Origin: Myxococcales bacterium | GTDB lineage: Bacteria; Myxococcota_A; Polyangia; Haliangiales; Haliangiaceae | DNA length: 64,000 nt | Reading direction: 5' to 3' | Assembly: GCA_016707895.1 (NCBI GenBank) | Contig: JADJGV010000034.1 | Span: forward strand, 821,625-885,624 | In this document: positions 3,188 through 23,291 of the stretch, piece after piece | Numbering within the stretch: position 1 is the stretch's first letter | Layout: each line of letters opens with the position of its first letter | Translations under genes and position numbers: made by a program | The notes under the pieces: model-generated | What the model was told of the DNA's origin: nothing | What the model saw: the letters and a program-made list of their open reading frames with translations, nothing else | Databases searched by the model: none

Positions 3188-3213
3188 GGGAAGGTTTGTC
3201 GACAAACCTTCCC
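3188..3213. terminator. Perfect 13-bp-arm palindrome GGGAAGGTTTGTC/GACAAACCTTCCC between convergent genes (likely bidirectional terminator)
   Basis: The site lies 3 bp after the lolE-like stop. It sits between the convergent 3' ends of 1788..3185 and 3318..7034, and is followed by a second GC hairpin (CCCGCGGGG). Confidence 0.55.
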
Positions 3214-3317: not shown

Positions 3318-6300
3318 TCAGGCGCCGAAGAGGCGGAGCAGGGCGACGGGGGCGATGGCGCCGCGGCGCTGGAGCTCGGCGACGACGGCGGCGTGCTCGG
3401 CGGCGCCGGCGGTGCCGCCGACCAGCGTGGCGACCCGGGCGCGCGCGGCCAGCGCGAACCCAGCCATGCCGGCGGCGGTGGCGGCGCGGCCGGCCTCGAC
3501 GTAGGCGGCGCGGGCGCGGGCCGGCTCGGCGCGCAGCTCGGCCAGGTGGCCGCGGGCCAGCGCGGTGAGCGGCGCGGCCCAGTCGGCGCCTTCGCGCTCG
3601 ACGCGCTGCACGCAGTCGTGCGCGACCCGCAGGCGCGCGGCGCGATCGTGCGGCTCGGCGGCGGCCGCCGCCAGCGCGGCGCGGGCGTGCAGCAGATCGG
3701 CCTCGACGCGCGTCAGCTGCAAGCCGATCAGCGGTGAGCGCCACAGCCGCGGCCAGGCGGCGTCGATCGTGGCCAGCGCCCGCGCCGCGTCGCCGCGGTA
3801 CAGGTCGACCTTGGCCGTGGCGACGGCGCGGAAGTAGTGGTGCAGGTGGAACTCGTCGTCGTCGGTGCGGTGGTCGAAGCCGGCCTCGGCCATCGCCAGC
3901 GCGTCGGCCGGGCGATCGACGATCAGCCAGTACAGGTTGCCGCGGCCGGTGCGCAGCCCGCCCAGCGCGTGGACGTCGCCCAGCTCCTCGGCCTCGGCCA
4001 GCTGCCGCGGGATCGAGGCGATCAGCCCGGCGAGGTCGCCGAGGTACCAGCGGGCGGCGGGCTGGAAGAACTGCACCAGGTTGAGCGCCCAGCGCACGCC
4101 GACGTAGTCGCGCTGCTGGGCCTCGGCCGCGCGCAGCCGGCGGTCGGCCTCGCGCCAGCGCCCGGTGAGCGCGGCGGCCACGCCGGCCCCGCCCTCGAGC
4201 AGCGCGGCCAGCTCGGGGCGGCCGAGCTCGTCGCACAGCGCCCGCGCCGCGGCCTCGACCGCCGCGGTGGCGGTCGCGGACTTGGTGCCGCCGTGGGCGG
4301 TGTGCGCGATCTCGATGCACAGCACCCGCGCCACCCGCTCGGGATCGCCGAGCGCGCGCGCCGCGTCGAGCAGGTGCAGCTGCGGCACGCGCGCCAGCGC
4401 CGGGTTGACGTAGGCCAGGCCGGCGGTCAGCGACCACAGCGTGTCGACCACCGCGCGCTCGCGATCGGTGACCTGCTCGGGCGTGCGGCGGGTGAAGCCG
4501 AAGCCGCGGACCCGGCGGGCCAGCCCCTCGGCCAGGAGCTTGGCCGCCCCGGCGGTGCGGCCGAGCGTGACGCCGGCGCCCAGCTCGTCGCACAGCGCCT
4601 GCGCGTCGGCCAGGCCGCGCCGCAGGTCGCCGCTGCGCAGCGCGTACTCGATCTGCATCCGGCGCAGCGCGATGGCCTCGGCCGGCGTGGCGTCGGGCAG
4701 CGCCGCCGCCAGCGTCGCCAGCGCGGCCTCGATGCGCCCGACGTTGGCGTGGCACTCGGCCTGCCGCCGGCGCAGCGCGACCCGGTGCGCGGGCGTCGCC
4801 GCGCCGGCCAGCGCGACCTCGTACATCGCCGCGGCGTGGCGGAACGCAAGGCTGGCCTCGGCGGCCAGCGCGGCGCGCTCGGCGTGCGGCGCGGCCCGGG
4901 CGGGCTCGCCGGCGGCGCGCCAGTGGGCGACCAGCTCGTCGAGCGGCGGCGCTGGCAGCCGCTCCAGCTCGGCGGCGAGCCGGGCGTGCAGCGCGGCGGC
5001 GGCGGCGGCCGGCAGCGCCGCCAGCGCCGCGGCGCGGATGCGATCGTGGTAGGGTTCGACGTACCACTCGCCGTGGGCCCTGCCGCCCACCAGCAGCCGC
5101 TCGCTGCACAGCCGGGTCAGCGCGGCCAGCCCGTCGCCCAGCCCAGCGGCGGCGATCGCGAACGGCAGCGGCCGGGCGGCCACCGCGGCGAGCGCCAGCA
5201 GCCCGCGGGCGTCGTCGTCGAGCGCGGCCAGCCGGCGGGCCAGCACCTGCTCGAGGCTGGCCGGCGCGGCGGCGGCGTCGGCGGCGCGGTGGCGGGCCAG
5301 CTCGACCAGCAGGAACGGCGTGCCGGCGGCCGCGTCGTCGAGCGCCGCGTCGTCGGCGCCGATCGCCGCGCGCAGCGCGTGGGCCGCGGCGCGATCGAGC
5401 GGGCCCACCGCGAGGTCGCGGACGACGATCGGCGAGCGGCCGCTGGGCTGGGCGACGTCGGTCAGGCGCACCGTCGGCGTGCCGGCGTCGTTCGGCAGCG
5501 CGGCGGCCGGCGTGTCGAGCGGCCGCGACGACAGCACGAACAACGCGCCGGTCCCGACGAAGTAGCGCACCAGCTCGCCGAGCAGGCCGGCGGTGTCGGC
5601 GTTGCTCCACTGCATGTCGTCGAGGAACACCACCGGCAGGCGATCGCCGGCCAGGCGCTGGATCAGCTCGGCGCACGCGGTCACGGCGCGGCGCCGCAGC
5701 TCGGCCGGATCGGCCGGCACCCGCCCCAGCGCTCGCGCGGTGGCGACCGCCTGGACCCGCGCCAGCGCCGGGAACAGCCGCGCCAGCGCCGCGACGTCGC
5801 GCGGCATCGACGCCGCCGCGCGCTCGGCCGGCATCGCCGCCAGCGCGTTGGCCAGGGCGTCGACCATGGTCTCGATGGCCGGGTAGGGCACGGTCTCGCG
5901 CTGGTGGCAGCGGCCGGTCAGCACCAGCGCCGCGCCCGGCTCGAGGCTGGCCAGGTAGTGGCGCACCAGCGCGGTCTTGCCGATGCCCGAGGCGCCGGTC
6001 AGCGCGACCACGACGCTGTCGCCGTCGCGCGCGGTCGCGAACGCCGCCGCCAGCGCGCCCAGCTCGGCGGCGCGACCGACGAACGGCGGCGCCGCGGTGC
6101 GCTCGGCCACCGCGCGGGTGGCCGAGGTCGGCTGGCGGCCCAGCGCGGCCAGCAGCACCGCGCCGTCGCCGCGGCGCGCCGGGCTGCGATCGAGCAGCCG
6201 CATGCAGGCGGCGTCGAGCTCGGGCGGCACGGTCGGCACCAGCGCCCGCGGCGGCGGCGGATCCTCGGCGACCCGGCGCGCCATCACCTGATCGCGGGTG

Positions 6301-11607: not shown

Positions 11608-12384
11608 ATGCGCGCAGCCCCTGTCGCCCTCGTCGTGATCGCTACCCTGGCGCCGTGGGGCGCCGCCGACGCCCGGCCCAAGAAGAAGAAGGCCTCGGAG
11701 CTGGTCGACATCAGCGCCGCCCGGGCCCAGCTCAAGGTGCTGACCGACAGCGACGGCGCCATCTACGTGATGGACAGCGGCTACCGCGACGACACGATGG
11801 TGTTCTACGGCGACAAGAAGGTGCTGCACCGCCAGCGCATCATCGGCGGCGGCGCCAACGGCCCGGCGTTCAGCTTCCGGTTCTGGGCGCCGCGCGTCGA
11901 TCACCGCACCGACATCGGCCGCAAGGACAACGGCGACTTCTTCGTGTCGTGCGGCGACCAGGAGGAGATCTTGAAGCCGGTGGCCGACGGCGACGCCCGG
12001 GCGGTGCTGGACAAGGCGGCGTTCAAGACCGCGATGTGGAAGCACCAGGGCCACGTGCTGGCCCGCGACGACAGCGGCACCTACTACTACGTCGATCGGC
12101 TGCGCGACGAGGAGGGCGGCAAGGGCTACCGGATCTTCGTCGGCCCGGCCGGCGCGATGAAGCAGCAGGTCATGAAGAACGTGGTGTCGGACTCGGTCGG
12201 CGAGATCTTCTCGACCAAGAACGGCCAGCTCCGGCTGGTGACCTCGAACTCCGAGACCACCTGGATCAAGGGCAACGTCAAGAGCTCGCTCACGCCGGTG
12301 CCGGTCGAGGACAACATCCGCCTGGTCTACGGCGACCTCGGCGTCTACCCGGCGGGCCTCGGCACGCCGTGCGACGATCTCTAG
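11608..12384 (+). CDS. Secreted hypothetical protein
   Basis: Signal peptide MRAAPVALVVIATLAPWGAADA. The body is lysine-containing with good codon usage. It is divergent from the kinase. Confidence 0.65.
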   Translation: MRAAPVALVVIATLAPWGAADARPKKKKASELVDISAARAQLKVLTDSDGAIYVMDSGYRDDTMVFYGDKKVLHRQRIIGGGANGPAFSFRFWAPRVDHRTDIGRKDNGDFFVSCGDQEEILKPVADGDARAVLDKAAFKTAMWKHQGHVLARDDSGTYYYVDRLRDEEGGKGYRIFVGPAGAMKQQVMKNVVSDSVGEIFSTKNGQLRLVTSNSETTWIKGNVKSSLTPVPVEDNIRLVYGDLGVYPAGLGTPCDDL

Positions 12385-12431
12385 CGCGCGTCCCCTTGGA
12401 ATCGGCGGCGGCGGCGCCGCGTTGGATCGCC

Positions 12432-13166
12432 ATGCGACCACGCGGCCTCGCGGTGCTCCTGGTGACGGTGGCGTGCCACGGCGGCGGCCCGGCGCGGCCC
12501 CTCGCCAACACCCCGCCGGCGCCGCCGCCGACCGGCGCGTTCATGGCCGGGTTGTTCGGGGGCGACCGCACGTTGATCTACGACGTCACCCAGGAGGCGT
12601 CGTTCTTCGACGATCAGGATCCGGCCGCCGACGCCAGCGGCGTCGTCAAGACCGCGTCGACCGACCCGGTGACCTGCCACCTCGCGGTCGCGACCCTCGG
12701 CCGCTACCGCACCGCGACGATCGCCTGCGACGACGGCGCGGCCGCCACCAGCGGCGCCCGGGTGCTCGACGAGCTCGAGCGCACCTACGCCACCGATGGC
12801 GCGCAGCTGTGGCGGCTGGAGGGTGGCGAGCTGCCGACGACGGTCGCCGACCTCGAGGCCGCGCTGCCCGATGCGCCCGACCTGGTGGCCGGCCAGCCGT
12901 CGGTCGAGCAGGGCGGCTACGACGACACCAGCGACGACGACGACGGCGACGGGAACCCCGACGATGGCGAGGACGACGCGCGGTTCGGCACCGTGCACCG
13001 GGTCACCGCCACCACCGACGGCTGGTGCGTCGAGGACGAGGGCTGGGGCGGCGACGAGGGCGGCGCCAGCTGGTGCGTGTCGGCCGCCCGCGGCGTCACC
13101 GCGGTCACCTGGTACTTCGCCGGCGGCTCGTCCCAGGATCAGCGCGCCGAGCTGCGCGCGCCGTGA
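12432..13166 (+). CDS. Secreted/lipoprotein hypothetical protein with an acidic Asp-rich C-terminal region
   Basis: Signal MRPRGLAVLLVTVACHGGG. Asp/Gly-rich stretch DDTSDDDDGDGNPDDGEDD. Confidence 0.6.
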   Translation: MRPRGLAVLLVTVACHGGGPARPLANTPPAPPPTGAFMAGLFGGDRTLIYDVTQEASFFDDQDPAADASGVVKTASTDPVTCHLAVATLGRYRTATIACDDGAAATSGARVLDELERTYATDGAQLWRLEGGELPTTVADLEAALPDAPDLVAGQPSVEQGGYDDTSDDDDGDGNPDDGEDDARFGTVHRVTATTDGWCVEDEGWGGDEGGASWCVSAARGVTAVTWYFAGGSSQDQRAELRAP

Positions 13167-15028
<1,862 letters not shown>

Positions 15029-18814: not shown

Positions 18815-19162
18815 TCAGGCCTTGCGCAGGAACTCGGCCTTGAGCATCACGCTCAGGTTGTCGACCTTGCAGTCGACCGCGTGGTCGCCGTCGGCCAGGC
18901 GGATGTTGGTGATCTTGGTGCCTTGCTTGAGCGTCACCGACGAGCCCTTCACCTTCAGGCTCTTGATCAGCACCACCGCGTCGCCGTTGGCCAGCGGCAC
19001 GCCGTTCACGTCGCGCACGACGCCGTCGTCCTCGGGCGCGGCGGCGGCGGCCGGGGCGGTCGCCAGCGACCACTCGTGGGCGCAGTCGGCGCACACCCAG
19101 CGCTCGCCGTCCGGGTACACGTTGGGCTGCGCGCAGCGCGGACAGGTCGTGGGCTCGTCCAT
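18815..19162 (-). CDS. phnA: PhnA/YjdC-family zinc-ribbon protein
   Basis: N-terminal CPRC...CADCAHEW zinc ribbon. The C-terminal domain is conserved ([25 protein letters not shown]-like). Length is 115 aa. Confidence 0.75.
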   Translation of the reverse strand: MDEPTTCPRCAQPNVYPDGERWVCADCAHEWSLATAPAAAAAPEDDGVVRDVNGVPLANGDAVVLIKSLKVKGSSVTLKQGTKITNIRLADGDHAVDCKVDNLSVMLKAEFLRKA

Positions 19163-19241
19163 CGCGGCCTTGTCGCAGAACCGCGGGCCGCGCGCAACGT
19201 CGCGGCGGCGACACCTCGTCGCGCCGACCGGGCCCGTGGGA

Positions 19242-20078
19242 TCACAGCGCGGCCCAGGCGCGCATGGCCCGGGCGCCGGCGGCGCGCCCGCGCTGGTAGT
19301 CGGCGAGCAGCACGTCGACGTCGCGGGTGATCCGGCTGGTGCGCAGGCCGTCGGGGGCGACGTGGACCACCTGGCAGTCGGCCGGCGGTCGCGCGATGAA
19401 CCCGCGCGCGCGCTCGTAGATCGCGCGGTAGCGACGGAACGCGCCCACCAGCGCCGGGTGTTCGCGCAACAGCCGCGCCGCCAGCGCGCACTCCAGGCGT
19501 GACGGACCCGGGAAGTCCGACGGGCGCGAGCGGATCACCAGGATGCGGCGGGCGCCGCGCTGGTAGGCCTCCTCGACCGGGATCGGCGCACCGAGGCCGC
19601 CGTCGGTGAACGCGCGACCGTCGACCTCGACGAAGCGGCGGAACAGCACCGGCACCGCCGACGACGCCTGCAGCACCTGCGACATCGACGCCGCGTCGGG
19701 CTCGAACCACACCGCGGCGCCGGTGTCGACCGCCGTCGCCGCCACCACCAGCCGCGTCGGGCCCGCCACGATCGCCGCCGCGTCGAGCGGATCCTCGCGC
19801 TCGAAGGCGTCCCACAAGTAGTCGATGTCGAGCCAGTGGCCGCCGCGCAAGAACCGGCCGGCATCGACGAACTCGCGGCGCCGCATCTGGTTGAAGAAGC
19901 AGCGGCGGTTGCGGCCGTGCTGGCGGGCCAGGTGCGACGACAGGTTGCACGCACCGGCCGAGCTGCCGATCGCCAGGTCGAACGGCGCGAAGTCGTGCTC
20001 GAGGAACACGTCGAGCACGCCGGCGGCGAAGACGCCGCGCATGGCGCCTCCTTCGACGACGATCGCGGCGTGCGCCAT
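19242..20078 (-). CDS. Patatin-like phospholipase
   Basis: GGAMRG oxyanion motif and GSSAG nucleophile elbow. A DGG motif (FTDGGL) is present. Confidence 0.8.
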   Translation of the reverse strand: MAHAAIVVEGGAMRGVFAAGVLDVFLEHDFAPFDLAIGSSAGACNLSSHLARQHGRNRRCFFNQMRRREFVDAGRFLRGGHWLDIDYLWDAFEREDPLDAAAIVAGPTRLVVAATAVDTGAAVWFEPDAASMSQVLQASSAVPVLFRRFVEVDGRAFTDGGLGAPIPVEEAYQRGARRILVIRSRPSDFPGPSRLECALAARLLREHPALVGAFRRYRAIYERARGFIARPPADCQVVHVAPDGLRTSRITRDVDVLLADYQRGRAAGARAMRAWAAL

Positions 20079-20352
20079 GGGCGGCGCAGTCTCGCAGGTT
20101 CGGCCGGCGGTGGCGATGGCCCGGGCGGCGCAGACGTCTGCGGCGACGCCGGTCAGGTAGCGCGCTGCTTCGACGGGAGCGTCTGGGCGGCCCGGGCTGG
20201 CCGGTGTCCGGGCCGGACCCCCGCGGCTGTCCGGGGATGGCCGGAGAGCCGGACAATCCGGACGAGATCCGGCCGTCTTGTCCGAGATTCGGACACGCGG
20301 CACGCGGTGTCGCGGAGTTGCGGCTGGCGCGCGGCTTGCTGAGGGGTTGGGC

Positions 20353-21663
20353 ATGGTGGACAGGGCAGCGGGCGGACAGCAGGTGAGCGAGGTGGCGGCG
20401 GCGGGCGCGGCGGCGGCTGCGGACGACTGGCGCGTGGTCGACCGGACGCTGCGCGGGCTGGCGCGGCGGCGGGCGGCGCTCGACGTCGAGGAGGCCGCGT
20501 GGCTGCGGCGCGCACGGGCGCTGGGCGTCCATCGCGAGCTCGGCTTCGCGTCGTTCTTCGAGTACGTCGAGCGCATCCTGGGCTACGCGCCGGGGCCAGC
20601 GCGGGAGCGGCTGCGGGTCGCCGACGCGCTGGCGGCCCTGCCGAAGCTGCGGGCGGCGATGAGCGCCGGCGACGTCGCGTACAGCGCGGCGAGGGAGCTG
20701 ACCCGGGTCGCGACGGTCGACACCGAGGCGGCGTGGCTGACGGCGGCGGCCAAGCACACCGTGCGGGAGATCGAGGAGATGGTCAGCGGGCGGCGGCGGG
20801 GCGACTCGCCGGACGATCCGCCCGACCCCGCCGCGCGGCTGCACGAGCTCCGGCTGCTGCTGCCCGCGGCGGTGCTGGGCAAGTTCACCGCGGCGCGGCG
20901 CGCGCTGGAGGCGGCGTGCGGGCATCCGCTGACCGATGGCGACCTGCTCGCGACCTTGTGCGATGGCCAGCTGGCCGGCGCGGGCTCCCACGTGGGAGAT
21001 GCCGTGGCGGGCTCCCACGTGGGAGATGCCGCGGCGGCATCCAAGCCCATGTATCAGATCGCGATCACGCGGTGCCCCGACTGCACGCGCGCGTGGCAGG
21101 ACGTCGCCGGGCACACGATCGAGATCAGCGAGACCGAGCTGGCGCAGGCGTCGTGCGACGCCGAGCTGCTGGGGCGGGTCGACGGCGACAAGCCGGCGCG
21201 GGTGACCAAGACGATCCCGCCGCGGACCCGGCTCGCCGTGCTGCGGCGGGATCGCGGGCGGTGCGTGGTGCCGGGGTGCCGCAACGCGCGGTACGTCGAC
21301 GTCCACCACGTCGTCCCGCGGTCGGCGGGCGGCAAGCACACGCCGAGCAAGCTGTCGGTGCTGTGCTCGGCTCACCACAAGGCCGCGCACGATGGCCGGC
21401 TGCGGGTCGAGGGTACCGCGCCTGGGAAGCTGCGGTTCACGCACGCCGACGGGCGGCCGTACGGGGCGCCGCCGTCCCACGTGGAAGATGGGGACGCGGT
21501 GGCGCCGCCTCCGCCAGGAGGCGAGGTCGCGGTGGCGCCGTCCCAGGCGGGCGTCGAGGTCGAGGCGCCGCCGGTCCCACGCGGGCGCCGCCGAGCCAAG
21601 GCGGCACCGGCGAGGGGAACGCGGGGCCCTCGAAGGCGGGTGGTCGCCAGCGGGGGACGCTAA
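20353..21663 (+). CDS. DUF222 / HNH endonuclease domain protein (13E12-repeat-like family) with an internal 9-aa tandem duplication
   Basis: The DUF222 N-terminal region is present (LRRARALGVHRELGFASFFEYVERILGY...). The C-terminal HNH motif is C..PGC.....DVHHVVPRSAGG.......LCSAHHKAAHDG. The repeat is AGSHVGDAV|AGSHVGDAA. Confidence 0.8.
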   Translation: MVDRAAGGQQVSEVAAAGAAAAADDWRVVDRTLRGLARRRAALDVEEAAWLRRARALGVHRELGFASFFEYVERILGYAPGPARERLRVADALAALPKLRAAMSAGDVAYSAARELTRVATVDTEAAWLTAAAKHTVREIEEMVSGRRRGDSPDDPPDPAARLHELRLLLPAAVLGKFTAARRALEAACGHPLTDGDLLATLCDGQLAGAGSHVGDAVAGSHVGDAAAASKPMYQIAITRCPDCTRAWQDVAGHTIEISETELAQASCDAELLGRVDGDKPARVTKTIPPRTRLAVLRRDRGRCVVPGCRNARYVDVHHVVPRSAGGKHTPSKLSVLCSAHHKAAHDGRLRVEGTAPGKLRFTHADGRPYGAPPSHVEDGDAVAPPPPGGEVAVAPSQAGVEVEAPPVPRGRRRAKAAPARGTRGPRRRVVASGGR

Positions 21664-21689
21664 CCATGCCCCGACCGGGTGATGTTGAA

Positions 21690-22076
21690 CTAGCGGCGGA
21701 AGAACGACGCCTGCTGGAAGCGCAGGCCGGCGACGATCTGATCGACGCAGGCTGCCGACAGCGCGCCGATGCGCGCGCCCAGCCGGGCCTTGGGGATCGA
21801 CGACACCTGCGACACCACGACGACGCTCTGCGTCGGCAAGTCGCCCTCGCCCGGCGCCAGCAGCACGTTGCCGGGCTCGCCGGCGCGGTGCAGGTTCGAC
21901 GTCAGGGCGCAGACGATCACGGTGGTCACGCGGGCGTGGTTGAAGACGTCGTCCTGGACCACCACGTGGGGGTGGGCGTAGGGCGGGGCCGGGCCGCGGC
22001 TCTCGTCGCCGGCGACCCAGTACAGCTCGCCGCGGTAGATCGGCGCGTTGCCGGGGCGGTCGGGTGGGGCGTCCAT
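21690..22076 (-). CDS. PemK/MazF-like type II toxin (CcdB/MazF fold), apparently solitary
   Basis: Family-like blocks are YWV......PHVVVQDDVFN...TVIVCALTSNL...PGNVLL...GEGDLP..SVVVVSQVSSIPKARL. No adjacent small antitoxin ORF was found. Confidence 0.6.
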   Translation of the reverse strand: MDAPPDRPGNAPIYRGELYWVAGDESRGPAPPYAHPHVVVQDDVFNHARVTTVIVCALTSNLHRAGEPGNVLLAPGEGDLPTQSVVVVSQVSSIPKARLGARIGALSAACVDQIVAGLRFQQASFFRR

Positions 22077-22151
22077 GGCCGAGGATACGGCGCCGGCGGA
22101 TGATCGGCGATCGGCCCGATACGAAGTCGCGGCAGCGCGCTCTACCCGGGC

Positions 22152-23291
22152 ATGTCGCACCTCGCTCGCTCATCGCTCCTGCTCGTCGCGCTCGTCGCGG
22201 TCGCCGGGTCCTCAGGCGCCGCCGCCGCCGCGCCCACCTTCGGCGACGGCGCCGTGCTGGCGCCGATCCCCGCCGCTGCCCGCTATTGCGCCGGTCAAGC
22301 CGGCTGCAACGGCGGCTACCCCGAGGGCGTCGCCGTGGTCGGCGACCGCGTCTACGTGGCGGGCCCCGCCACCTTTGGCACCGCGGGCAAGGGGCCCAGC
22401 GTGGTCACCGTGCTCAACCGCGCCAGCGGCGACCTGATCACCGAGATCCCGATCGCCGGCGAGCAGCTGGCCTTCGAGCACGCCCTCAGCGGCATCGCGG
22501 TCGACGCCGCCGGCGACGTGTTCGTGGTGTCGACGCAGCTCGGCGTGATCCGCCTGCACCGCCACGGCCGCCGCTATCAGCAGTCGTCGTACGCGCCGCC
22601 GCTGCCCGACCTGCCCGCGTGCACCCCGGGCGGGCCGGCCCCGTGTACCCCGACCTTCGTCGACCTGCCGCCGCTGTCCAACGAGATGACGTTCGACGCC
22701 GCCGGCAACCTGTACGTCACCGACTCGCTGCAGGCGACGATCTTCCGCGTCCCGGCCGGCGGCGGCTCGATCGCGCCCTGGTTCGCCAGCCCGCTCCTGG
22801 CCGGCAACCTCGCGGCGCCGCTGCCGTTCGGCGCCAACGGCATCAAGCTCAGCCCGGATCGCGCGTACCTCTACCTGGTCGAGACCTTCGATCCGGTCGA
22901 CCCCAGCCTGGGCCACGTCTACCGCGTGCCGCTGGTCGACGCGCCGGCGCCCGACAGCATCGAACACGTCGCGACGTTCGGCGGCGGCGTGGTCCCCGAC
23001 AGCCTGACCTTCGGGGCGTCGGGTACGATCTACGTAACGCTGGCCGGCGCCAGCCAGATCGCCGTGCTCGAGCCCGACGGCACCGAGCGGACCCGGATCA
23101 CCGGCCCGGCGGGTAGCCCGATCCCGTTCGACAACCCGGCGACGATGGCGTTCGACGACGGGCGGCGGTCGCTGCTGGTGACCAACCACGCCATCTTCGG
23201 CGACCCGGCCCACTTCGCCGTGCTGCGGGTCTTCGTCGGCGAGCGCGGCGATCCGCGCCCGGGCGATGACGACGACGGTGACGACGACTGA
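22152..23291 (+). CDS. Secreted six-bladed beta-propeller protein (SMP-30/gluconolactonase/NHL-like) with an acidic C-terminus
   Basis: Signal peptide. Repeated GxxYVTD/IYVT motifs. The tail is DDDDGDDD. Confidence 0.65.
   Translation: MSHLARSSLLLVALVAVAGSSGAAAAAPTFGDGAVLAPIPAAARYCAGQAGCNGGYPEGVAVVGDRVYVAGPATFGTAGKGPSVVTVLNRASGDLITEIPIAGEQLAFEHALSGIAVDAAGDVFVVSTQLGVIRLHRHGRRYQQSSYAPPLPDLPACTPGGPAPCTPTFVDLPPLSNEMTFDAAGNLYVTDSLQATIFRVPAGGGSIAPWFASPLLAGNLAAPLPFGANGIKLSPDRAYLYLVETFDPVDPSLGHVYRVPLVDAPAPDSIEHVATFGGGVVPDSLTFGASGTIYVTLAGASQIAVLEPDGTERTRITGPAGSPIPFDNPATMAFDDGRRSLLVTNHAIFGDPAHFAVLRVFVGERGDPRPGDDDDGDDD

Follow-up and report, generated by a model that had tools for sequence, protein, structure and literature searches.

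Introduction

To our knowledge, the function of the DUF222-HNH genes of the REP13E12 type has been unknown since 1999, as have the sequences that these abundant, repeated and recombinogenic genes bind or cut and the way in which they spread. In Mycobacterium tuberculosis, the 13E12 genes occur in repeated copies with inducible control sites of their own, are damage-inducible, drive recombination among the copies and lie at recombination and inversion breakpoints (PMC3381160, PMC13157036), and LexA/SOS-box control and a phage attB within the element are features of REP13E12 in this species (PMC3381160). A second system of interest here is the solitary mazF-mx gene of Myxococcus xanthus, which has no mazE; MrpC has been reported as its regulator and antitoxin, and later work contested the MazF-mx phenotype as well as the direction in which MrpC acts (PMC4803016). 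Here we describe a locus at which an HNH nuclease gene and a solitary mazF gene converge, with 26 bp between them. It lies in a 64,000-nucleotide stretch of DNA (contig JADJGV010000034.1, assembly GCA_016707895.1; G+C 74.9%) from a Myxococcales bacterium, referred to throughout as the window, and is 100% identical to locus L001 of the Myxococcales metagenome-assembled genome (MAG) GCA_964269055.1. The two genes are:

20353 to 21663, plus strand: HNH nuclease gene (436 amino acids)
21690 to 22076, minus strand: solitary mazF (128 amino acids), outside the repeat unit described below

A previous sequence-only reading of the window had placed both open reading frames (ORFs) at these coordinates and in convergent orientation, had labelled the first a DUF222-HNH protein and the second a MazF/PemK-like toxin, and had proposed that the pair forms a remnant or unconventional addiction or defence module. 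The ORFs are as described, and the Pfam profiles HNH PF01844 (22.4 bits versus a cut-off of 21.4) and PemK_toxin PF02452 (E 4.7e-21, 75.5 bits, profile positions 2-106 of 109) matched the 436- and 128-amino-acid products, respectively, but DUF222 PF02720 gave no match in the HNH protein, even at E<=10. The module is not supported by the comparison with other genomes, where the linkage is not conserved. What had been overlooked is that the leader of the HNH gene is part of a repeat unit and contains a sigma-54-type promoter consensus, and that the duplicated 27-mer inside the gene is one case of a family-wide, nucleotide-level palindrome resembling parS. On balance, we favour the view that the locus holds two unrelated neighbours: a REP13E12-like HNH repeat, with a palindrome that would be read by its own protein, and an orphan MazF.

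REP13E12 (DUF222-HNH) of M. tuberculosis and other Actinobacteria is the closest known system to the HNH unit. Both are multi-copy, dispersed, single-gene units of ~1.4-1.5 kb that encode an N-terminal helical domain and an HNH domain; in both, each copy has its own regulatory sites and copies recombine, and distant homologues of the window protein carry PF02720. The window unit differs in that it resides in Myxococcota, in that its protein falls below the DUF222 threshold, and in that its control region looks dependent on sigma-54 and an activator, not on LexA and an SOS box.

The HNH gene and its dispersed copies

Comparison of sequences indicates that the HNH gene and its upstream DNA (~20137-21665) are almost certainly one copy of a ~1.5-kb single-gene dispersed repeat, which would be the counterpart, in Kofleriaceae-like Myxococcota, of the actinobacterial REP13E12 elements. 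A protein search returned many paralogues, 85-93% identical in protein sequence, which come from the same MAG or its sisters. In DNA, the paralogous loci (L011 and L013 in the same genome, L007-L009 in MAG-81) resemble the window over ~20193-21647 at 87-90% identity, with blastn alignments starting at 20185-20222, so the shared DNA comprises ~160-215 bp of upstream non-coding sequence plus the whole ORF. The right edge of the unit is the stop codon. The left edge is ragged: among 22 aligned copies, many share sequence back to GTCAC followed by GTAGCGGGCTGC (~20137-20158), and others only from ~20200. The non-coding part is therefore delimited as follows:

20137 to 20352, plus strand: 5' non-coding part of the repeat unit (leader), with similarity fading at ~20137-20200

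At least three copies are present in GCA_964269055.1 (L001, L011, L013) and three in the related MAG (L007-L009). Scanning metagenomes with a DNA pattern gave 16 further loci, the majority of which end within the HNH gene, and contigs L002-L006 also break inside it, as expected of a multi-copy sequence. Counting 16 distinct left flanks, the unit occupies at least 16 insertion sites. The locus thus shows what characterises a REP13E12-type dispersed repeat, namely multiple near-identical copies of a gene plus its upstream DNA in unrelated contexts, and the earlier suspicion of a multi-copy, mobile gene was well placed: judged from its distribution, the unit is probably mobile or recombinogenic. 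In the ordered domains of the paralogues, the ratio of non-synonymous to synonymous substitution rates (dN/dS) is 0.09-0.25 and dS is 0.13-0.28 (0.5-0.6 versus L009), and by this measure the paralogues are under purifying selection. A plasmid search gave no match to the HNH unit, and a phage search gave only a weak match confined to the HNH domain; no junction with a prophage was seen. The contig of the closest flanked mazF orthologue (L038, 79% identity) was considered as a source of the empty insertion site and was rejected, its neighbours being wholly different.

Several minor observations concern the edges and flanks of the copies. In five of six annotated loci, the next gene downstream converges on the HNH gene and the two 3' ends abut or overlap; the unit may prefer landing just behind gene ends:

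Convergent 3' ends: window 21663/21690; L011 5334-5380; L013 5371/5413; L035 3510/3526; L037 4269/4381

A 14-nt perfect palindrome, CGCAGACGTCTGCG, is found at 20129-20142, just outside or at the ragged left edge, with no equivalent at the left flanks of the other copies. Within each of two groups of loci (L022/L024/L033 and L025/L028), the upstream flank is common but the leader variants differ, and the proximal leader of L028 is identical to that of the window; such a pattern would result from gene conversion between copies or from chimeras in the metagenome assembly. A protein-pattern scan of contigs was saturated by low-complexity peptide patterns and yielded at least four loci. Among them is L010, from a Streptosporangiaceae MAG, where an actinobacterial DUF222-HNH-like open frame (3770-5386) encodes CHVEDGDAV, comparable to the SHVEDGDAV of the window. 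Since L010 was retrieved with the HVEDGDAV pattern, this peptide likeness is a selection artefact, and its perfect palindromes (CAGGTGATCACCTG and others) differ.

The HNH protein and the predicted fold of its N-domain

The HNH protein was modelled with AlphaFold2 using 71 homologues. Two domains were predicted confidently:

20425 to 20982, plus strand: helical N-domain (residues 25-210), with the predicted fold of the ParB/Spo0J/KorB/Noc DNA-binding domain; DUF222-like in sequence
21055 to 21462, plus strand: zinc ribbon plus HNH (beta-beta-alpha-metal) nuclease domain (residues 235-370), from the model and alignments

Residues 1-15, 218-229 and 377-436 were predicted to be disordered, and the linker and C-terminal tail had a predicted local distance difference test (pLDDT) score below 50. 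In Foldseek searches with the full model, the top matches were M. xanthus ParB and the Noc DNA-binding domain (template modelling score, TMt, 0.71), and the N-domain predicted separately (pLDDT 94) returned the same ParB/Noc matches. The model thus argues that the N-domain probably has a ParB-like fold. While this domain has the predicted helix-turn-helix fold shared by ParB and KorB, neither the CTPase (ParB/Srx) domain nor a family match accompanies it, and the HNH protein, which has a ParB-like domain, is not a ParB. Compared with ParB, Spo0J, Noc and KorB and their parS, NBS (Noc-binding) or OB palindromes, it has neither a CTPase/ParB N-terminal domain nor a ParA partner, its domain is part of a fusion with a zinc ribbon and an HNH nuclease, its candidate site differs from parS at +/-5, and its gene is multi-copy and dispersed, not origin-proximal, and without similarity to ParB at the sequence level.

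The nuclease domain is better defined in sequence. HNH PF01844 matched 57 of the 71 homologues, and the invariant residues of the domain, which include all its zinc ligands and catalytic histidines, are C304, C309, H318, H319, C338, H341, H342 and H346, the canonical Asn position of HNH not being conserved in this family. In sequence, it resembles only the HNH domains of IscB and McrA, and the NCBIfam IscB match reaches 32 bits versus a cut-off of 175, over residues 291-351 only. Like the free-standing homing HNH endonucleases and the IscB genes of IS200-IS605 elements, the gene behaves as a selfish, spreading nuclease gene. Unlike IscB/IS200-IS605, the window element has no RuvC, omega-RNA (no Rfam match), TnpA or insertion sequence ends, and it is not an IscB; unlike homing endonuclease genes, it has no intron or intein context, and its candidate site lies inside the element, not in an empty target.

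The label DUF222-HNH stands for its second half. DUF222 PF02720 was found at E<0.01 in two of the 71 homologues (P0202 and P0240), and the N-terminus encoded at L037 scored 23.0 bits against this profile (cut-off 24.4). P0202 is 49% identical to the window protein and carries both PF02720 and PF01844. By sequence, the window protein is linked to DUF222 only transitively and below threshold.

A further module distinguishes the distant homologues. A C-terminal RuvA_C-like region (PF07499, best E 4.8e-11), with an [AT]HVG palindrome in its loop, is present in 27 of the 71 homologues, for example:

C-termini with a RuvA_C-like region: L035 3400-3510; L036 4200-4338; L037 4130-4269

The clade of the window has lost this module, and its place is taken by a disordered tail made up of palindrome units that have decayed. 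A module contacting RuvB would hint at a role in recombination.

A palindrome inside the coding sequence

The 27-bp in-frame tandem duplication described previously is present, and Tandem Repeats Finder (TRF) reports it at 20980-21037 with a 27-nt period, 2.1 copies and a 96% match. Together with two related stretches further downstream, the repeats in the coding sequence are:

20983 to 21036, plus strand: two 27-nt in-frame units encoding GSHVGDA(V/A)A, identical at 26 of 27 positions, in the disordered linker
21475 to 21486, plus strand: third palindrome copy, decayed by one base (TCCCACGTGGAA; GTGGAA), at a site usually conserved near the tail
21495 to 21587, plus strand: low-complexity tail with a 33-nt period (TRF) and decayed palindrome units, encoding the disordered C-terminus

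The two units (20983-21009 and 21010-21036) differ at one base (T/C), and they encode part of the disordered linker, since residues 218-229 were predicted to be disordered. Each unit embeds CCCACGTGGG, which is part of a 14-nt palindrome, CTCCCACGTGGGAG (20985-20998 and 21012-21025). TCCCACGTGGGA occurs at 20986, at 21013 and, with one mismatch, at 21475, for 0.21 occurrences expected in the window, and in 320 kb of fetched sequence it is confined to HNH genes. In the window copy, the tail-proximal site has decayed and both linker sites are intact. The homologous tail-proximal site is intact in L007, L008, L009, L011, L013 and L032, and the tail units of the window align with intact CCCACGTGGG units of L008.

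The corresponding peptide, [S/A/T/P]-H-V-G, occurs 0-5 times per protein in homologues down to 45% identity, in the linker, the C-terminal tail and sometimes the N-terminus. In the 11 loci with DNA, all 25 [SATP]HV[GE] peptides are encoded by NCC-CAC-GTG, and the NCC codons specify exactly S, A, T and P. Background codon use in the same genes is GTG 48%, TCC 19%, GCC 25% and GGA 12%, and the catalytic HHV is encoded with CAC-GTC. Because the NCC-CAC-GTG codons are uniform against this background, the conserved element appears to be the DNA palindrome CCCACGTGGG. Its outer pair, at +/-6, changes between lineages and stays complementary in 18 of 20 intact cores: TCC...GGA (T-A) in the window's clade (14 cases), GCC...GGC (G-C) in L035 and L036, and ACC...GGT (A-T) in L037. 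The third base of the Gly codon thus tracks the first base of the preceding Ser, Ala or Thr codon, which selection at the protein level cannot explain. The palindrome often reaches 14-18 nt, as in CTCCCACGTGGGAG of the window and GCGTCCCACGTGGGACGC of L009.

The number of linker units varies from 0 to 5 among homologues and units decay, for example from CACGTG to CACGCG; in each of the 11 genes, decay affects the surplus copies and leaves one or more cores intact. Perfect palindromes of at least 12 nt are common in the window (96 in 64 kb), so palindromy alone is not evidence, and the case rests on recurrence, codon usage and covariation. Chance retention is unlikely, given three pair types in at least four lineages and dS up to 0.6. 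Taken together, these comparisons make it very probable that the family as a whole conserves the palindrome at the nucleotide level. It always lies in segments encoding disordered peptide, with 1-5 copies per gene, and would thus be a nucleic-acid signal hidden in coding sequence and tolerated where the encoded peptide is disordered.

Likeness to parS and a possible reader of the palindrome

The M. xanthus parS consensus is TGTTCCACGTGGAACG (PMC3899335), from which the family core, GTCCCACGTGGGAC, departs mainly at +/-5. Within the window, only the 16-mer at 21473-21488 matches parS with three or fewer mismatches (0.09 expected). Scored on the 16-bp consensus TGTTNCACGTGNAACA, the best copy reaches 13 of 16 and the core differs at +/-5 in all lineages; by sequence, the palindrome is parS-like and is not parS.

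A ParB-type domain and conserved parS-like palindromes in the same gene make recognition by the gene's own protein the simplest reading. The N-domain would bind the intragenic palindrome, (C)TCCCACGTGGGA(G), as a dimer, and the nuclease would then be recruited to, or retained on, copies of the gene that encodes it. From the model and the sequence comparisons, we infer such a reader tentatively, as a serious possibility that falls just short of an even one. One outcome could be autoregulation as known for KorB or ParB; another could be that the enzyme nicks or cleaves the DNA and so provokes recombination, gene conversion and shifts in unit number between copies. We lean towards recombination because unit numbers change, common flanks carry differing leaders and the damage-inducible 13E12 genes of M. 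tuberculosis lie where recombination and inversion break the chromosome.

Extended to the whole family, the proposal would make DUF222-HNH/REP13E12-type genes self-recognising selfish nucleases, in which a ParB-type domain reads the gene's own parS-like palindromes and the HNH domain cuts or nicks there, driving gene conversion, spread of copies and rearrangements, with a dedicated sigma-54 activator gating expression as LexA does in mycobacteria. We regard this generalisation as rather unlikely as it stands. In the literature searched, no ParB-like fold or intragenic parS-like palindrome has been described for the DUF222-HNH/REP13E12 family, and the combination of a ParB-type fold with a covarying palindrome provides a specific candidate recognition site, and a testable mechanism, for an old family.

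The leader and its sigma-54-type consensus

As the sequence-only reading had noted, the leader is packed with repeats of the CCGGACA/TGTCCGG type: of the 12 TGTCCGR heptamers in the window, five lie in the 91 bp of 20205-20295, where ~0.02 are expected. The elements of the leader are:

20205 to 20218, no strand: palindrome P1, TGTCCGG-G-CCGGAC (family consensus GGTGTCCGGsGCCGGACACC)
20239 to 20274, no strand: nested palindrome cluster GGCCGGA-GAG-CCGGAC-AATCCGGAC-GAGA-TCCGGCC (TRF period 9, inverted repeats)
20279 to 20295, no strand: palindrome P2, TGTCCGA-GAT-TCGGACA (17 bp; TGTCCGAGATTCGGACA), from alignments
20325 to 20340, plus strand: sigma-54-type -24/-12 consensus TGGCGC-GCGGC-TTGCT (TGGCGCGCGGCTTGCT), with the -12 GC 13 nt before the ATG

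The P1 consensus reads GTGTC-N8-GACAC, and the window copy has an N7 spacer. The copies differ in whether the cluster includes one particular CCGGAC unit of ~12 nt. P2 is kept in all protein-retrieved copies (L007-L009, L011, L013), with similar sequence in L035 and L037. P2 and CGCGGCTTGCT were part of the metagenome search pattern, which makes conservation in L019-L034 uninformative; the independent evidence for conservation of the leader comes only from the protein-retrieved copies and L035.

The consensus TGGCRC-N5-TTGCW has its sole match in the 64 kb, on both strands, at 20325-20340 (0.05 expected), where GG and GC stand 10 nt apart upstream of a gene. The block is invariant or near-invariant in the protein-retrieved copies. 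In L035, a homologue with 55% identity, the element and the CCGGAC repeats are kept at ~70 nt from the start codon, and the block is thus not merely a ribosome-binding region. A scan for sigma-70 promoters found none, and terminator-like matches lay inside coding sequence. From the consensus and its conservation, we infer that 20325-20340 is a putative sigma-54 promoter, an assignment that we consider fairly likely. Relative to a sigma-54 promoter, enhancer-binding activators usually bind between about -55 and -150, and the TGTCCGR/CCGGA palindromes, which occupy these positions, are by analogy most likely candidate activator sites. Each copy of the repeat would then bring its own control region, with a sigma-54-type promoter and upstream activator palindromes.

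The orphan MazF

The MazF of the window is 72-77% identical to eight myxobacterial MazF proteins, with 76 invariant columns; these relatives come from M. xanthus, M. hansupus, Haliangium, Sorangium and Paraliomyxa, and the identity to M. xanthus MazF (P0103, P0006) is 76%. On sequence, this conservation is far above that usual for the toxins of mobile toxin-antitoxin systems. The absence of a cognate antitoxin ORF, as first noted, was confirmed: the gaps beside mazF, of 26 bp and 75 bp, contain no confined ORF of at least 20 amino acids. The adjacent, co-oriented small antitoxin gene of a canonical type II mazEF locus is missing in the window and in six orthologous contexts (L014 and L015 of M. 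xanthus; L016/L017; L018 of Sorangium; L038), where there is neither a small upstream partner nor an HNH neighbour and the neighbours are different each time.

The gene thus combines high identity to M. xanthus MazF with a solitary position, and 21690-22076 is very probably an orthologue of the orphan MazF-mx whose adjacency to the HNH gene is incidental, because the mazF orthologues are solitary in six contexts and the HNH unit occurs in at least 16 unrelated ones. The mazF gene would be inherited vertically and controlled in trans, if controlled at all, and the HNH unit would have landed behind its 3' end. Control in trans, which had been raised as an option, fits the published MazF-mx/MrpC paradigm (PMC4803016). 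Like MazF-mx, the window MazF is solitary, has no mazE and is strongly conserved across Myxococcota; it differs in belonging to a Kofleriaceae-like MAG and in having no MrpC-type site (TGTYN8RAC) upstream, none being present in 19900-22400. The known orphan MazF-mx is thereby extended to another myxobacterial lineage, with a solitary state conserved across the phylum.

Alternative explanations

The conserved palindrome admits two other readings. If SHVG were a short linear motif acting at the peptide level, for instance as a docking site, the DNA palindrome would be a by-product. All copies do lie in one reading frame, the motif sits in the disordered linker or tail (or in the loop of the RuvA_C-like module in distant homologues), and L037 has an HVG at a structural position with non-palindromic codons, but a peptide motif leaves unexplained both why all 25 of 25 cases use only TCC/GCC/ACC, CAC and GTG and why the synonymous third base of Gly covaries with the first base of Ser, Ala or Thr, and we consider it improbable. 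The palindrome could also be read by another factor, such as host ParB (as a pseudo-parS), another dimeric regulator or a serine integrase (as attB), or act as an mRNA hairpin. Such readers are suggested by its 12-13 of 16 matches to parS, by the phage attachment sites that REP13E12 elements hold (cf. phiRv1; PMC3381160) and by the 5-bp hairpin that CUCCC-ACGU-GGGAG can form. Yet +/-5 differs from parS in every lineage, +/-6 and +/-7 drift, an RNA hairpin needs no invariant CACGTG centre, and the motif is confined to a gene family whose protein carries a ParB-type DNA-binding fold, all of which leave another reader unlikely.

The leader and the pairing of the genes can likewise be read differently. 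A structured RNA (a riboswitch, an attenuator or a guide resembling the omega-RNA of IscB) was considered for the leader in view of its many nested inverted repeats, an RNAalifold consensus fold of -44.9 kcal/mol and the likeness of the HNH domain to that of IscB. This candidate was rejected: across 19 leader copies RNAalifold found no covariation (covariation term -0.33 kcal/mol; 1 of 38 pairs with a compensatory change), an Rfam scan of 19900-22300 at E<=10 returned only noise, the presence and absence of the CCGGAC unit suits iterated protein-binding sites, the protein has neither RuvC nor other IscB parts, and, should the sigma-54 element be the promoter, transcription would start downstream of the repeats. 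A structured leader RNA is therefore very improbable. It is somewhat less so, though still quite improbable, that P1 is a site for MrpC or another CRP-family protein, which would tie the HNH family to the reported regulator of MazF-mx. MrpC is characteristic of Cystobacterineae rather than of the window's clade. The P1 family consensus fits the MrpC motif TGTYN8RAC, which occurs only three times in 64 kb, but its authors rate this motif as poorly predictive (PMC4320627), the N7 spacer of the window copy departs from it, no such site precedes mazF, the spacer of P1 is itself palindromic and conserved, unlike those of CRP-type sites, and P2 is spaced differently. As for the addiction or defence module, the convergence of the two genes at 26 bp and the weak PADLOC matches of the HNH protein to defence models (DpdF, E 1.9e-5; type IV restriction enzyme, 0.002) are what can be said for it. 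These matches span the generic HNH motif only and MazF has no PADLOC match; moreover, the neighbours of the MazF orthologues in M. xanthus, in Sorangium and in three metagenomic lineages are unrelated and include no HNH gene, and the HNH unit is found in at least 16 unrelated contexts. The absence of conserved linkage largely refutes the module, to which we give next to no probability.

Several observations also weigh against the reading that we favour, in which a REP13E12-like repeat encodes a protein that recognises a palindrome in its own gene. At the repeat unit, no empty site, terminal inverted repeats, target duplication or recombinase was found, so its spread is read from distribution only. 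The ParB-like assignment is one of fold only (Foldseek E ~0.02), with no sequence-level ParB match in Pfam, NCBIfam, PDB-sequence or family-profile searches, PDB having returned HNH domains only, and binding and cleavage of the palindrome by the HNH protein are deduced from fold and sequence. For the palindrome, 12 of the 71 homologues lack an [SATP]HVG peptide, all copies are in one codon phase, many instances share ancestry, so the counts overstate independent events, and the QHVG of L037 (CAT-GTC) is conserved for protein reasons elsewhere, leaving room for an added constraint on the peptide. As to the leader, the window copy of P1 has degenerated, with an A>C change and the loss of 1 nt, the sigma-54 motif is absent from L036 and L037 (47-49% identity), and the predicted sigma-54 start (~20350-20353) coincides with the ATG, implying a leaderless mRNA, with which the Shine-Dalgarno-like GAGGGG at 20341-20346 conflicts.

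Other features of the window

In the identical MAG locus L001, a public gene call at 12035-13261 fuses Patatin, DUF6363 and a YjdM/PhnA zinc ribbon in one protein of 408 amino acids. The corresponding part of the window (18815-20078, minus strand) instead has two distinct ORFs (19242-20078 and 18815-19162), and the discrepancy could stem from a frameshift, from a difference in assembly or from a mis-call. Far from the locus, at 3188-3213, the longest perfect palindrome in the window, GGGAAGGTTTGTCGACAAACCTTCCC, spans 26 nt around an AT-rich centre.

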